Shown here in pieces: positions 1-4,068 of a stretch of DNA of 34,795 nucleotides; positions within the stretch are counted from its first letter, which is position 1; each line of letters starts with the position of its first letter. A model generated the notes under the pieces. The model was not told the DNA's origin. It saw only the letters and a list, made by a program, of their open reading frames with translations, and ran no database searches. The translations under genes were made by a program, and so were the position numbers. The DNA is from Limisphaerales bacterium (lineage in GTDB: Bacteria; Patescibacteriota; JACMRA01), in contig JBIIDY010000002.1 in the NCBI GenBank assembly GCA_044238065.1, positions 1 to 34,795 on the forward strand, written 5' to 3'.

Positions 1-93
1 TTGGTTAAAAATTTCAGAATTATTAGCGGAATTTGTAGATATAGACTGAATAAAATAGCTAAAAGATTTAATTTAATTTGTGGAATTTGTAAC

Positions 94-483
94 CTAAAAA
101 ATGTTTAACGCAAGAGGTCTATTATGTCCAATGGTTCTTTTCCAAACAATAGTATTCCTAAAATTCCCTTCGCCAAAGATTTTATCCAAAATATAAACCC
201 GAATGTAGGCGTCCGCATGCCAGTCGCAGTGGAGATAAAAACTCCCGGTTGGTTTGAGAATGCGATGAATTTCTTGCACTCTTTCTTTGAGCCAGCCGAT
301 ATAGTGATCCACTCCGCCACTCCACCGATCTTCAAAACTCCGCACTTCGCCCTTGTCGCCCCAAATCACTTCGTAGTTACGATTAGAGAAAAACGGCGGA
401 TCAATGTAGCAAAGGTCAACACTTTCACTAGGTAAATTTTGGAGAGTTTGGAGGCAATCGCCGAGGATGAGAGAGTTTAGCAT
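94..483 (-). pseudogene. N-terminal fragment (129 aa) of a beta-class N4-cytosine/N6-adenine DNA methyltransferase; the C-terminal SAM-binding half is missing
   Basis: The translation starts MLNSLILGDCLQTL and contains catalytic motif IV DPPF (LCYIDPPFFSNRNYE) and GSFYLHCDWH, typical of the N4/N6 MTase family. The ORF stops after 129 aa, and no FxGxG motif I is visible in any frame of nt 1-93. Confidence 0.7.
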
Positions 484-559
484 AAAAAAAAGTTGACTGG
501 AATAAAAACTTGTGATATAATACGATTATCATAATTTTTAATTTATTTTTTTGTCAAAG
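445..559. repeat. Repeat unit R1: methyltransferase 5' codons (minus strand) plus bidirectional promoter region
   Basis: The core gcataaaaaaa[a]g/cttgactggaataaaaacttgtga[t/c]ataatacgatta[t/c][c/t]ataatttttaatttatttttttgtcaaag is shared nearly base-for-base with 1029-1143 and slightly less well with 1751-1866. Confidence 0.9.
493..557. promoter_or_regulatory. Overlapping face-to-face promoter pair in R1
   Basis: Plus strand: TTGACT (493-498), 17 nt, TGaTATAAT (513-521, extended -10). Minus strand: TTGACA (557-552), 18 nt, TATGAT (533-528). The two -10 boxes are 6 nt apart and point at each other, so the predicted start sites overlap. Confidence 0.65.
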
Positions 560-564
560 TGTGT

Positions 565-1027
565 ATGGAAAAATTACCAAATTCTGAAAAACCAAAAATA
601 ACCAAAGATGAAGTAAATCAATTAGTATATACAGAGGATTTTCAACAAATGCCAAACGGAGATGCTAAAATAAGCAAAAACAATCTTTAAAGAATATACT
701 AATAATAATCGTTTTACTGGTGAATGCTACGATATAGAGAAATTATTGTTAATAAGTTTTTATGTTTTGGGAAGCGGGGCAAATGTAGTTGAAGATAATA
801 ATTATTACATCTGTACACCATACGATCAAACAATAATTAATTGCCTCGTAATAAGATTTGGAAGACCTGACTTAGCTTGTCACAGTGAAGTAAAAGGTCT
901 GGGCAGTGAACCACACATACATATTCATCAAAATAAAAAATCCAAAGAAATTAATTATGGCTATGAAACTACTAAATTCATTGGTAAAAATCTACATGTT
1001 ATGGTTAGACAAGATGAGTATTATTAG
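565..1027 (+). pseudogene. Cassette-1 cargo: hypothetical ~150-aa gene apparently split by a +1 frameshift in an A-rich run
   Basis: ATG at 565 opens a 41-codon ORF (MEKLPNSEKPKITKDEVNQLVYTEDFQQMPNGDAKISKNNL) ending at 690. The next frame is open from 674 to 1027 (AKTIFKEYTNNNRFTGECYDIEKLLLISFYVLG...), overlapping at aaaataagcaaaaacaat. The second part contains RPDLACHSEVK, a possible PD...ExK signature. Confidence 0.4.
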
Positions 1028-1028
1028 A

Positions 1029-1143
1029 ACTTCCAAACCGCCAGCCGAGAATTAGAGAGTTGAGCATAAAAAAACTTGACTGGAATAAAAACTTGTGACA
1101 TAATACGATTATTATAATTTTTAATTTATTTTTTTGTCAAAGA
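1029..1143. repeat. Repeat unit R2: orphan MTase start stub (MLNSLILGWRFG on minus strand) plus promoter region
   Basis: Hand alignment to R1 shows only a few substitutions or indels across the ~80-bp core. No methyltransferase body is attached. Confidence 0.9.
1076..1140. promoter_or_regulatory. Overlapping face-to-face promoter pair in R2
   Basis: Plus strand: TTGACT (1076-1081), 17 nt, CATAAT (1099-1104). Minus strand: TTGACA (1140-1135), 18 nt, TATAAT (1116-1111). The leftward promoter has only an MTase stub ahead of it and would read antisense into the 565-1027 ORF. Confidence 0.6.
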
Positions 1144-1713
1144 ATGAGTCTTGAATTTTCTCCCCACGAAACTGTTGATATAGAAACATTTATGATTGTA
1201 CTTGGCGGTATGTTGCCAAATAGGGATAACCATTTTTACTTTAATGGGCAAGGAGAAGAAAATTCTACTGTTCGTTTTGTAATTGCTGATTGTACTCATT
1301 TAGAACGAGAATTTGAAATAGATACTGATTATTCTACACAAAAAGAGCAGTCGATAACTTTTCATTTCATTCCTTTTGGGAGAAAAAATCTTGCTTTGAA
1401 TAACGATAGGGAAAAACTTTTGTCAAAAATTGGAACTTTAATGACTTTAGTTTTGATTTACGAAAAAGCTGTTGAAAATAATGTGGATTATCTCTTGGTT
1501 AATACTAGATTCGAAAAGCTACATAATTTTATAGTTAATAATTTAGGTTATAACTTGATTACCAACACAGATGAGGGTGAGTATTTAAATTATAAAAAAT
1601 CTATAGTAGAAATTTCTTATAAAATAGTAAATGTAAAGTTAGAAATTAGTGGTTTATGTTCTAAAAATAAAATAACAGAAAAAGAAATAAAAGCAGTTTT
1701 TTGTATTAAATAA
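1144..1713 (+). CDS. Cassette-2 cargo: hypothetical protein (189 aa)
   Basis: The ATG lies directly after R2. It is a long ORF in AT-rich DNA with no motif I can assign. Confidence 0.55.
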   Translation: MSLEFSPHETVDIETFMIVLGGMLPNRDNHFYFNGQGEENSTVRFVIADCTHLEREFEIDTDYSTQKEQSITFHFIPFGRKNLALNNDREKLLSKIGTLMTLVLIYEKAVENNVDYLLVNTRFEKLHNFIVNNLGYNLITNTDEGEYLNYKKSIVEISYKIVNVKLEISGLCSKNKITEKEIKAVFCIK

Positions 1714-1750
1714 AATTACTAGAAAATAGGTAATTTAAAAACTTTCTAAA

Positions 1751-1866
1751 ACTTTCCAAACCACCCGCCAAGGATGAGAGAGTTTAGCATAAAAAAAACT
1801 TGACTGGAATAAAAACTTTTAATATAATACGGATATTATAATTTTTAATTTAATTTTTTGTTAAAG
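1751..1866. repeat. Repeat unit R3: orphan MTase start stub (MLNSLILGGWFGKF on minus strand) plus promoter region
   Basis: Hand alignment to R1 and R2. It is more diverged in the -10 and 5'UTR part (cttttaatataatacggatattataa). Confidence 0.85.
1800..1864. promoter_or_regulatory. Overlapping face-to-face promoter pair in R3
   Basis: Plus strand: TTGACT (1800-1805), 17 nt, TATAAT (1823-1828). Minus strand: TTAACA (1864-1859), 18 nt, TATAAT (1840-1835). Confidence 0.55.
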
Positions 1867-1894
1867 GATTGGAATTTTTAGTAAAAAAATAATC

Positions 1895-2872
1895 ATGAAA
1901 AATTTTTCGTCACATGAGATGAGAGAAGTTCCTTTGGAAAGAGGTGAAGCTTTGCGAAATATAAAATTTATTGATGGAATAAGAGAAGCTGTTTTTATGT
2001 TAAATATTTCCCCACATAATATTATACATATAGGTGGTACGGCGATATTTTATCACACTCAAAAAAAAATACTGGATTTTCTTAGAGAGAAACACCCTTC
2101 AAAACATAAAACAGAATTAACAAGATTGGCAAGCTTCATAGCCAAAACAATGTATAGAGGTACACATGATATTGATCTAATTACTAAACAAGAATCTGAC
2201 ATTTCGCAAATTATTGGAAAAATGGAAAATAATAATTTAGGCTGCTTTGTCAAAAAGGAAATTTCTCATTTGGAAAGTAAGAGGAAGCTTGGGTTTAGAT
2301 TAAATAGGAATCCATATTCATTCTATAAAAAAAAGCAAGAATATAGCGACTATCCTAATACAGATATTTTTGAAATGGATGAATATTTTTTTACAAAACG
2401 TGAAGATTCGTATTTGCTTCATTTTAATGAAAGAATAGTTGAGTGTAATACTGGTTCGGATTGGGATAATAATAATTTTCCAATTATTAAAGAAAACCCA
2501 CTTTTATTAGATCTTGAAGATGAAAAAGGATTGGTTTGCGTTCCTACATTGCTAGATTGTTTTTTATTTAAAACAGATATTATCACTTTTAGTAAATCTG
2601 GGCTAAGACCAAAAGATTGTGTGGATATTTTATTTTTAGTTAGTAACTTTAGTCAAACAGACTCTAAAAATGCTATTATGGAAATAAAAAATAGTCCTGA
2701 CGCTAAAAAAAAGTTTTTAGAATTAAATAATTTATTATCAAATAAGGATAAAGTTATCCAAGAATTTAGCTTGGGTGTCGGCTATTCTTTTAAAGAAAAT
2801 ATAGGAAATGCTATTTTTTGTGAGAAAAAATTAAATGAATTTAAAAAACAAATGGACAGATATAAAAATTAA
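1895..2872 (+). CDS. Cassette-3 cargo: Pol-beta-superfamily nucleotidyltransferase resembling AbiEii/AbiGii (DUF1814) type IV toxins
   Basis: An N-terminal HIGGTAIFYHT is followed by RGTHDIDLI, matching the hGG...R.[ST].DIDh pattern of AbiEii-type NTases. The spacing between the two motifs is longer than usual. Confidence 0.45.
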   Translation: MKNFSSHEMREVPLERGEALRNIKFIDGIREAVFMLNISPHNIIHIGGTAIFYHTQKKILDFLREKHPSKHKTELTRLASFIAKTMYRGTHDIDLITKQESDISQIIGKMENNNLGCFVKKEISHLESKRKLGFRLNRNPYSFYKKKQEYSDYPNTDIFEMDEYFFTKREDSYLLHFNERIVECNTGSDWDNNNFPIIKENPLLLDLEDEKGLVCVPTLLDCFLFKTDIITFSKSGLRPKDCVDILFLVSNFSQTDSKNAIMEIKNSPDAKKKFLELNNLLSNKDKVIQEFSLGVGYSFKENIGNAIFCEKKLNEFKKQMDRYKN

Positions 2873-2932
2873 ACTACATCAATAACCAAAAAACTATTTT
2901 AGACTGGGAAAATTGTCAATAGGAAATACAAA

Positions 2933-2996
2933 ACCACCAAACCATCTACCGAGGATGAGAGGTTTGAACATAAAAAAACCTTGGCTGGAATAAAAA
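2933..2996. repeat. Repeat unit R4: degenerate partial copy (stub MFKPLILGRWFGG on minus strand; -35 mutated to ttggct; -10 half absent)
   Basis: accaccaaaccatctaccgaggatgagaggtttgaacataaaaaaaccttggctggaataaaaa aligns to the left half of R2 and R3. Confidence 0.7.
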
Positions 2997-3100
2997 AATA
3001 CATTTATTAAACTTGTTACTATTTATACCTTGAAACTATCAATAAGTTTCACTTCTCTAAGTGTAAGATTTGGTCGTGGAATGGGTATAATCAAGTTTTT

Positions 3101-3628
3101 TTAGGACTTTTTTTGGAAAGTAGACAGGTATAAAAAAGCGATGGGGCCGATATGCCAAATCCAAGGGACAATTGACCACAAATTGACCTCTTCTACCGTA
3201 ATCACATATTCTTCTGGGTAGCTATTTTTATAACCTCCCAAAAAACGGATAAACCATTTTGGCCACCATTCTCTCGGCATTGGCTGGCTTGGAAAACTAA
3301 GATTGAGAATATAAATAAAAAAACCTAAAACCAACATTCCAAAAAACCAAATTTGCCAAGATTTTTCAAACTCACCTTTGGCGAATAAGTCCAATTTCTC
3401 CACCACAAATTTGCGAATTAATAATGTAATAACCAAGCAAACAAAGAATAAAACAAGCCAAATTGGACCGTCAGTTTGAATTTTAAAATTAAGAGAAGAG
3501 AGAAGACTCAGAATCCACGCCGCAACCCTACCAATCAAATCCTGGGCAACCTGGAAAACGAAAAAAGAAATCAAAGTGGCAACATAGTAAGCAGATAGCA
3601 GACTTTTGCTAAACTTAAATTCTTTCAT
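3101..3628 (-). CDS. Hypothetical multi-pass membrane protein (175 aa)
   Basis: The ORF has several hydrophobic segments (LISFFVFQVA, IWLVLFFVCLVITLLI, IWFFGMLVLGFFIYIL). Confidence 0.5.
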   Translation of the reverse strand: MKEFKFSKSLLSAYYVATLISFFVFQVAQDLIGRVAAWILSLLSSLNFKIQTDGPIWLVLFFVCLVITLLIRKFVVEKLDLFAKGEFEKSWQIWFFGMLVLGFFIYILNLSFPSQPMPREWWPKWFIRFLGGYKNSYPEEYVITVEEVNLWSIVPWIWHIGPIAFLYLSTFQKKS

Positions 3629-3831
3629 ATTTTATATTTATAATAAGATTTTTTCAAAACTTGGAAATTTGAGTTTTTGATTTTTGAAATTTTTTACCCA
3701 ATTTGTTTTGATTATGGGCTTTAATAAAAAAGTTAAACAAAATTAGAGCCAATTTAATAATAGCCAATTTAATCAATTTTAGAATTAAACGATTTAGATA
3801 ATTTTTCAATTTTTTTTATAGGGTTAAATTT

Positions 3832-4068
3832 CTAAGCAACTACTTCAGCGTTATTTTCTACGACTTTGAAAGTAATAGTTTTGGAAACTGGTGAACAACT
3901 TTGAATTTCTACAGCTTGACCAATTGTAAAAAGTGAAGAATCTGAGCAACTACACGCATATCGCTTTTTGACTTTGAAAGATTTTTTGTATTTTGTGTGA
4001 GTTTTTTTGCGGAAAACAGTAACAATTACAGCTTTGGTCATTTTGTTGGATGTGATAACACCTGTCAT
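3832..4068 (-). CDS. rpsQ: 30S ribosomal protein S17 (divergent, stand-alone)
   Basis: GVITSNKMTKAVIVTV...HTKYKKSFKVKKRY...IGQAVEIQSCSPVSKTITFKVVE aligns along its length with the E. coli S17 pattern GRVVSDKMEKSIVV...HPIYGKFIKRTTK...GDVVEIRECRPLSKTKSW.LV. Confidence 0.8.
   Translation of the reverse strand: MTGVITSNKMTKAVIVTVFRKKTHTKYKKSFKVKKRYACSCSDSSLFTIGQAVEIQSCSPVSKTITFKVVENNAEVVA

Follow-up and report, generated by a model that had tools for sequence, protein, structure and literature searches.

Face-to-face predicted promoters, probably copied from a methylase control region, head the genes of a strain-variable array in a lake bacterium

The locus described here raises the question of why two near-consensus promoters should point at each other across a gap of 6 nt, and why this arrangement should recur along an array of ORFan genes. 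The window analysed, a 34,795-nucleotide stretch that forms the start of contig C122, comes from a genome (G000) of 1.5 Mb in 182 contigs with 33% GC; the genomes of its relatives measure 0.7-1.6 Mb, so that the DNA probably stems from a lake-water bacterium of the candidate-phyla-radiation type. The window holds three copies of a unit of about 111 nt (R1, R2 and R3) and the left part only of a fourth (R4), and no other copy is present in the genome. The reading that we consider probable is that the face-to-face pair is the compact control region of a DNA methylase gene and its divergent neighbour, which was copied together with eight methylase codons into the unit that now heads the genes of the array and serves as their recombination joint, and that the leftward promoters of those copies that face only a stub of the methylase gene are passengers. 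The features on which this reading rests are collected in Table 1.

Table 1. Features at the left end of the window. Positions are those of the window; leftward sites are numbered in the direction in which they are read.
Feature	Position	Strand	Description
IS right end	1-121	+	C-terminus of DDE_Tnp_4 transposase, stop 106-108; Pfam DDE_Tnp_4 E=4e-10
Methylase 5' fragment	94-483	-	N6/N4 DNA methyltransferase; homology 122-483; stop 94-96 within the IS; pseudogene
Unit R1	449-559		Methylase-facing; methylase ATG 481-483 (-), A-tract 484-491, + promoter, - promoter
R1 rightward predicted promoter	493-498, 516-521	+	TTGACT 493-498, 17-nt spacer, TATAAT 516-521, TG 513-514
R1 leftward predicted promoter	557-552, 533-528	-	TTGACA 557-552, 18-nt spacer, TATGAT 533-528
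76-aa gene fragment	565-674	+	First 110 nt; aligns to L120 5712-5821 and L123
172-aa gene fragment	675-1027	+	3' two-thirds; 89% identity to L123 2377-2857
Unit R2	1033-1142		Stub copy; stub ATG 1065-1067 (-); also 3' of the 172-aa gene in L142, L143, L123
R2 rightward predicted promoter	1076-1104	+	TTGACT-17-CATAAT, with TG
R2 leftward predicted promoter	1140-1111	-	TTGACA-18-TATAAT, 12/12 match
189-aa cargo gene	1144-1713	+	Intact ORFan
Unit R3	1756-1866		Stub copy; 100% identical in L120-L128
R3 rightward predicted promoter	1800-1828	+	TTGACT-17-TATAAT, without TG
R3 leftward predicted promoter	1864-1835	-	TTAACA-18-TATAAT
325-aa cargo gene	1895-2872	+	Intact here; weak nucleotidyltransferase signatures (DUF6036, GrpB, AbiEii-like)
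R4 partial unit	2937-2996		Stub, A-tract, TTGGCT and GGAATAAAAA; homology ends after 2996
175-aa membrane protein gene	3101-3628	-	Conserved right flank of the array; syntenic in L120-L141
S17 gene	3832-4068		Beyond the 175-aa gene in the right flank

To locate the promoters we used a scan for consensus hexamers of the E. coli type, the use of which in this lineage rests on their genome-wide enrichment and orientation. The original prediction had placed two opposed promoters in R1 with -10 boxes 6 nt apart, and the scan found sites exactly there; the same 6-nt gap separates the opposing -10 boxes of R2 and R3. The further claim that R2 and R3 preserve the geometry of R1 held for the gap and for the presence of both promoters, but the boxes themselves have not all been kept, the rightward -10 box of R2 being CATAAT and R3 lacking the TG. 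Across all eight distinct units that we recognised, 10-12 of the 12 hexamer positions match the sigma-70 consensus, at spacings of 17 and 18 nt.

Sites of this quality are rare in the genome, where only 182 match at 11 or more of the 12 hexamer positions (0.12 per kb of the 1.5 Mb, both strands counted). The sites of R1-R3 are six of the seven best promoter matches within positions 1-4000, and only four face-to-face near-consensus pairs exist genome-wide, two of them at this locus. The other two pairs lie at C65:12474-12571 and C79:10206-10257, that on C65 between divergent ORFs 166 nt apart. Of the sites matching at 11 or more positions, 68% fall outside long ORFs, though long ORFs cover 69% of the DNA, and 43 are aimed at a nearby ORF start compared with 15 that are aimed away, so that, as far as placement can tell, they have the distribution that genuine promoters would have here. 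The rarity of such sites, taken together with their promoter-like placement and orientation, argues that the pairs did not arise by chance. Taking the usual 7 nt from the -10 box to the start, each promoter is predicted to start transcription inside the -10 box of the other. The rightward promoter looks like the stronger of the two, given its A-tract at the position of an UP element, its 17-nt spacing and its extended -10.

Where the pair came from became clear from other strains. Searches that started from the 189-aa protein cluster, from the 172-aa protein and from the 175-aa protein of the right flank returned syntenic contigs from lake metagenomes, representing one deposited MAG and no fewer than 15 other samples; they include L123 (GCA_943355195.1), L142 (ERZ27280204 k141_2077328) and L120, a locus of 10.8 kb. 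Genes for FtsZ, G6PD, SufBD, S17, proB and L10/L25 flank the locus, which places it in a bacterial chromosome and not in the genome of a T4-type phage. In the relatives the ATG of the methylase gene and the ATG of the 76-aa gene are 81 nt apart with the same promoter pair between them, and a unit identical to R1 adjoins the methylase gene in L123. Three alleles of the methylase, with units Ua, Ub and Ug, all retain the pair; differences affect 0-4 of the 81 intergenic positions, compared with about 10% in the methylase coding part. The ancestral unit carries a rightward TTGACT-17-TGaTATAAT with an A-tract upstream at the place of an UP element, and a leftward TTGACA-18-TATAAT. Comparison between strains thus shows the pair in what would be its native setting, as the control region of the methylase gene and the divergent 76-aa/189-aa genes.

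The methylase of the related loci is an intact protein of 594 aa (L120:3847-5631), in which N6_N4_Mtase spans residues 22-322 and is followed by a sub-threshold match to Mrr_cat. It belongs with other proteins of about 550-600 aa in which an N6/N4 methylase is joined to an Mrr-like PD-(D/E)xK region (L023, L024, L120:3847-5631). Its closest relatives, with 72-80% amino acid identity over the N-terminus, are those of L023 and L024, IMG/VR contigs classed as viral, and the regions upstream of these IMG/VR relatives are unrelated to the unit. The unit is likewise absent from the methylase paralogues of this genome and its relatives, and a search of 40 relatives gave no real match. Beyond the lineage, the 19-mer TTGACTGGAATAAAAACTT had 15 matches among the GTDB species representatives, all attributable to chance, and the hexamer-neutral pattern GGAATAAAAAN{23,27}ATTTTTAATTTA hit 88 loci in IMG/VR and the JGI metagenomes, again all by chance.

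One could ask whether the leftward site is a promoter at all. The right half of the unit (about 522-559) might instead be an AT-rich 5' leader and translation start of the cargo genes, the methylase being transcribed from elsewhere or by read-through. Since in five of six cassettes the cargo ATG is preceded, at a distance of 1-9 nt, by TGT(C/T)AAAG, the right half may indeed double as a translation-start leader. It also occurs on its own: a lone degenerate right half (about 75% alike), with no left half, stands before the 189-aa gene and 3' of the 76-aa gene (L120:5965-6000, L123:1458-1493), and in runs X2 and X4, aligned to 515-567, a right half is found in another context, between GGGATTGGCT and the start of a different gene, TGGACAGAACAAAATCC. 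A leader with no promoter in it is nevertheless hard to reconcile with a match of 11-12/12 at an 18-nt spacing, given the scarcity of such sites, and the match lies about 37 nt ahead of the methylase ATG, at the very place where a promoter for that gene is required. Moreover, the scan found no other candidate promoter in the 81-nt intergenic region, and the pair has been kept beside all three methylase alleles. We judge it quite improbable that the right half is a leader only.

If both sites are promoters, their opposed placement has a simple reason, as 81 nt offer too little room for two divergent sigma-70-type promoters placed back to back, each with a leader of about 35 nt. RNA polymerase covers a promoter from about -55 to +20. 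With this footprint and -10 boxes 6 nt apart, a polymerase bound at either promoter would cover the other, and the two would compete. Simultaneous occupancy of an R1-type pair therefore appears implausible, and mutual exclusion would follow from the geometry. At the methylase-facing copy, one polymerase would thus be accommodated at a time, with the two promoters contending for the same DNA; the predicted transcripts overlap by only about 8 nt, so that the expected effect is competition between the promoters and not the pairing of antisense RNA.

Promoter pairs that face each other are known from coliphage 186 (pR/pL) and from the bioA/bioBFCD control region of E. coli, where they are governed by the repressors CI and BirA, respectively. 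The unit resembles these in that the opposed promoters are close enough for interference or shared control, but the 186 and bio pairs answer to a repressor and no regulator was identified for the unit here. The 186 pair is mentioned in PMC3675496. A closer counterpart is the region between the M and R genes of Ecl18kI, whose promoters face each other and were shown by experiment to compete (Protsenko et al. 2009, PMC2760811). As in Ecl18kI/SsoII (PMC2760811), a methylase and a divergent neighbour are controlled from one short intergenic region and two promoters oppose each other, here at the level of sequence; that a polymerase at one promoter competes with the other is, for the unit, what its geometry leads one to expect. 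The differences are considerable. In Ecl18kI 50 bp separate the starts and the R promoter is located within the M gene, whereas in our unit the predicted starts are separated by about 8 nt and both promoters are intergenic. The balance in Ecl18kI is tipped by an N-terminal HTH of the methylase and a palindromic operator, and neither was found here: no N-terminal HTH was matched in the methylase, in which the N6_N4_Mtase domain begins at residue 22, and no inverted repeat that could form such an operator was reported within the unit. Repetition of the kind seen in our locus is not known for the Ecl18kI region.

The partner genes differ as well. The original prediction had built on the shared intergenic regions of divergent methylase and endonuclease genes, a premise that does not carry over to this locus: the partner of the Ecl18kI methylase is a restriction endonuclease, but the partners here are ORFans and not recognisable restriction enzymes, and it is the methylase itself that has the weak Mrr-like domain. 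The 76-, 189- and 172-aa partner proteins matched no nuclease or other family, and the 76-aa protein matched no HTH family of the sort expected of a C-protein-type controller.

In the genome at hand, moreover, the methylase gene has been cut by an IS and the first cargo gene is a pseudogene. The methylase fragment matches the 594-aa L120 protein over residues 1-122 at 94% identity and covers only profile positions 1-84 of the 221 of Pfam N6_N4_Mtase. Homology to the relatives stops at 121, where the IS end begins, which indicates that the methylase is dead in this genome. The IS end is present as an identical stretch of 121-125 nt at no fewer than 23 contig ends of the genome and reaches a depth of 950 in run X1, the probable source run, compared with 23 for the locus (about 40-fold). 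Copies lie at the ends of C4, C20, C21, C31, C32, C41, C42, C56, C61 and others, their flanks begin with TTA, ATA or TTG, and this DDE_Tnp_4 element explains much of the fragmentation of the assembly. Cargo 1 consists of fragments of the 76-aa and 172-aa genes fused out of frame at 674/675, and is thus a chimeric pseudogene. We considered a frameshift in the A-run at 674-690 and rejected it, as 674/675 is the junction of two different genes. Other strains have the 76-aa gene in intact form, with the 189-aa gene downstream of it.

The genes that follow the units have hardly any relatives. Among 5.8 billion proteins, the 189-aa protein has only its own 90% cluster and one relative of 151 aa, and the 325-aa protein has two relatives only, in unrelated contexts. 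No cargo gene gave a solid match to a family in Pfam, NCBIfam, PHROG or PADLOC, and the AlphaFold models of the 325-aa and 189-aa proteins (pLDDT 54) were too poor for a fold search. In strains of the L120 type, the 325-aa gene is split by a MITE-like insert (L120:7164-7558) into ORFs of 148 and 155 aa. Dozens of copies of this MITE-like repeat, of about 280-395 nt, are scattered through the window's genome, for example at C18:5122-5401 and, three times, on C2.

How the control region spread is recorded in the stubs. In R2, R3 and R4 the methylase gene is reduced to its first eight codons (MLNSLILG), which are followed by CCAAACC, a motif that the true gene lacks, and then by unrelated sequence, in agreement with the earlier view that the leftward promoters of R2 and R3 face stubs only. 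In all stub types CCAAACC lies at an equal distance from the ATG and thus marks one left boundary. This common boundary points to a single event in which the region and eight methylase codons were duplicated, and not to truncations that recurred independently, the copies now standing before each cassette. The motif occurs at 1033-1042, 1756-1765 and 2937-2946, corresponding to 449-458 of R1, and true methylase genes carry its reverse complement, GTTTGG, at about that place; the difference may reflect a small inversion at the original duplication junction. CCAAACC also permits a weak hairpin in the leftward transcript of some copies. The unit copies are 87-96% identical. R4 forms the right end of the array and is joined there to the flank that is conserved in all strains.

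No RNA element was recognised in the unit, which matched no Rfam family and had no significant fold on either strand (z -0.24 to +1.17). A search of positions 1-4000 gave no terminator-like sites, and the hairpins at the stubs are weak and inconsistent between copies. As no convincing terminator lies between, a leftward transcript from a stub copy would run into the preceding gene, and the leftward promoters of these copies, if active, would yield short transcripts of a stub mini-ORF or antisense RNA into the preceding cargo gene.

Are these stub-facing promoters maintained for such a purpose? The original prediction had argued for function from the survival of the leftward boxes in the stub copies and had proposed checking whether substitutions avoid the four hexamers more than the spacers. 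No such avoidance is apparent. Variable positions number 3 of 24 in the hexamers and 5 of 43 elsewhere for R1-R3, and 3 of 24 and 7 of 43 for the eight distinct units, other samples included (Fisher p=1), a comparison of little power with only 10 variable positions among the eight units, and a weak one also because the rightward promoters before cargo genes are no better conserved than the spacers either. All three hexamer changes lead away from the consensus: a T>C at -12 in the rightward -10 box of R2 and Ud, a T>C within the leftward -10 box of Ua, which faces the methylase, and a G>A in the leftward -35 box of the stub units R3 (Ue) and Ud; the first and the third fall on key bases. Stub-facing leftward promoters score 11-12/12, equal to the methylase-facing ones.

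Selection on the stub-facing promoters would imply that every cargo gene lies between a promoter of its own and the opposing promoter of the next unit, and that antisense transcription or interference silences a possibly toxic cargo or renders its expression bistable. The promoters are undecayed, with 11/12 matches in R3 and Ud and 12/12 in R2, Uf and Uf', and the full matches are also compatible with retention by selection. The lack of a convincing terminator before the preceding gene and the weak likeness of one cargo gene to an AbiEii-type nucleotidyltransferase toxin would suit this idea too. It is weakened by hexamers that vary as much as the spacers and by the -35 G>A in two stub units, and from the partial R4 it is evident that a unit can do without its right half when no cargo comes after it. 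In addition, the copies are young and recombining, so that boxes would be retained without selection, and near-identical copies acting as recombination joints are the simpler cause of the conservation on which the original prediction had relied. We consider it unlikely that the stub-facing promoters are kept by selection; nothing in the sequences indicates that they are, and a selected antisense role appears unsupported.

A bolder proposal, and in our opinion a long shot, is that the unit acts as a two-way switch, which drives the downstream ORFan cassette and blocks or antisense-silences the upstream one. With one polymerase per unit, cells would settle into different expression patterns of the array, and the unit would double as the homology for moves between strains. 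Were this true, it would amount to a diversification of a defence/toxin gene set, free of recombinases and of rearrangements, in a small-genome bacterium.

Comparison of strains shows that the units recombine. Between common flanks (the methylase gene on one side, the 175-aa/S17 genes on the other) we found at least four architectures in at least 15 samples. In architecture A, the methylase gene is followed by the 76-aa and 189-aa genes, R3, the 325-aa gene split by the MITE, and R4; in B, by the 76-aa and 189-aa genes, Uf, the 172-aa gene, Ud, a 232-aa gene and R4'; and in C, by the 172-aa gene, R2 and the 189-aa gene. The window itself has the IS-cut methylase gene, the fused 76-aa and 172-aa fragments, R2, the 189-aa gene, R3, the 325-aa gene and R4. 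Metagenome assemblies may be strain chimeras, and the architectures are to be read accordingly, with A present in at least nine contigs and B, C and the arrangement of L142 on 1-3 contigs each.

The units at the joints are mosaics. After the 189-aa gene comes the S3 stub, which is combined with the Ue core where the next gene is the 325-aa one and with the Uf core where it is the 172-aa one. The S2 stub comes after the 172-aa gene and leads to either the 189-aa or the 232-aa gene. A unit's left half thus moves together with the upstream gene and its right half with the downstream gene, which is the outcome expected from homologous crossovers inside the unit. Contigs of other lake runs contain the same unit types and further joints (structural variants), and a further cargo start from these runs (X6) matches the 172-aa gene of L123. 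In run X1 the depth falls from 23.5 (98-955) to 11.6 (926-3600), and about half of the X1 population may carry a different continuation after cargo 1 (926-955). Recombination inside units shuffles the cassettes, with the unit supplying both a portable promoter and the homology.

The same joints could be taken as the mark of a dedicated, integron-like site-specific recombination, in which the hexamer dyad or an inverted CCAAACC...GTTTAG motif is the site of a recombinase and the likeness to promoters is secondary. The array is cassette-like with a unit at every joint, the stubs share a boundary, and contigs of run X2 join 1142 to 1756 and 1797 to 2980, which brings the end of a unit next to where the following one starts, on sides of only 30-35 nt. 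Joints that go back along the array are also present in contigs. L142, which runs from the end of the 172-aa gene through R2, the 189-aa gene, Uf' and the 172-aa gene to R2, has an exact terminal overlap of 126 nt (1-126 = 1366-1491), which would fit a circular molecule of two cassettes but also a tandem duplication or an assembly that mixes two strains; the joints that go back can likewise be explained by tandem copies or by chimeric contigs. No integrase or recombinase gene is found in the 10.8 kb of L120 or in the flanks of the window, the unit does not fold significantly on either strand, and crossovers fall at varied points of the mosaic units, as homologous recombination predicts. Each cassette, unlike those of integrons, has a promoter of its own. 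We regard a dedicated recombination site as highly improbable, and homologous recombination between copied control regions as the better account.

Two known cassette systems invite comparison. The array shares with integrons its single-gene cassettes in the same orientation, a conserved junction repeat and a content that varies between strains, but integrons possess an integrase and a folded attC, neither of which was found, and here crossovers are spread within the repeat; an integron reading was rejected on the lack of an integrase and of an attC-like fold and on the promoter in every cassette. The promoter-early stem-loop (PeSL) cassettes of T4-type phages (Arbiol et al. 2010, PMC2839356; PMC4122927) are more alike. 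They too are short repeats with a strong sigma-70-like promoter that flank ORFans in a hypervariable region, and recombination between them shuffles, deletes and replaces genes among close relatives. PeSL repeats each contain a stem-loop terminator, whereas the unit is without one and has instead a second, opposing promoter and the stub of a methylase start. PeSLs are a feature of phages, while our unit lies in a bacterial chromosome beside core genes. PeSLs also give rise to excised mini-circles; the terminal overlap of L142 and the joints that go back could be traces of such molecules here, but equally of tandem copies or chimeric assembly. We place the locus with two known kinds, the face-to-face promoters of the Ecl18kI type and promoter cassettes like those of PeSL.

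If both promoters fire, the pair would be a natural case of competing promoters in a very compact form, with 6 nt between the -10 boxes. The context may matter more: in an uncultured lake bacterium with a small genome, a promoter repeat derived from the start of a methylase gene forms the joints at which an ORFan array is shuffled, so that the PeSL principle of T4-type phages appears in a cellular chromosome. For annotation, the locus teaches that a well-conserved promoter within a repeat need not be under selection.
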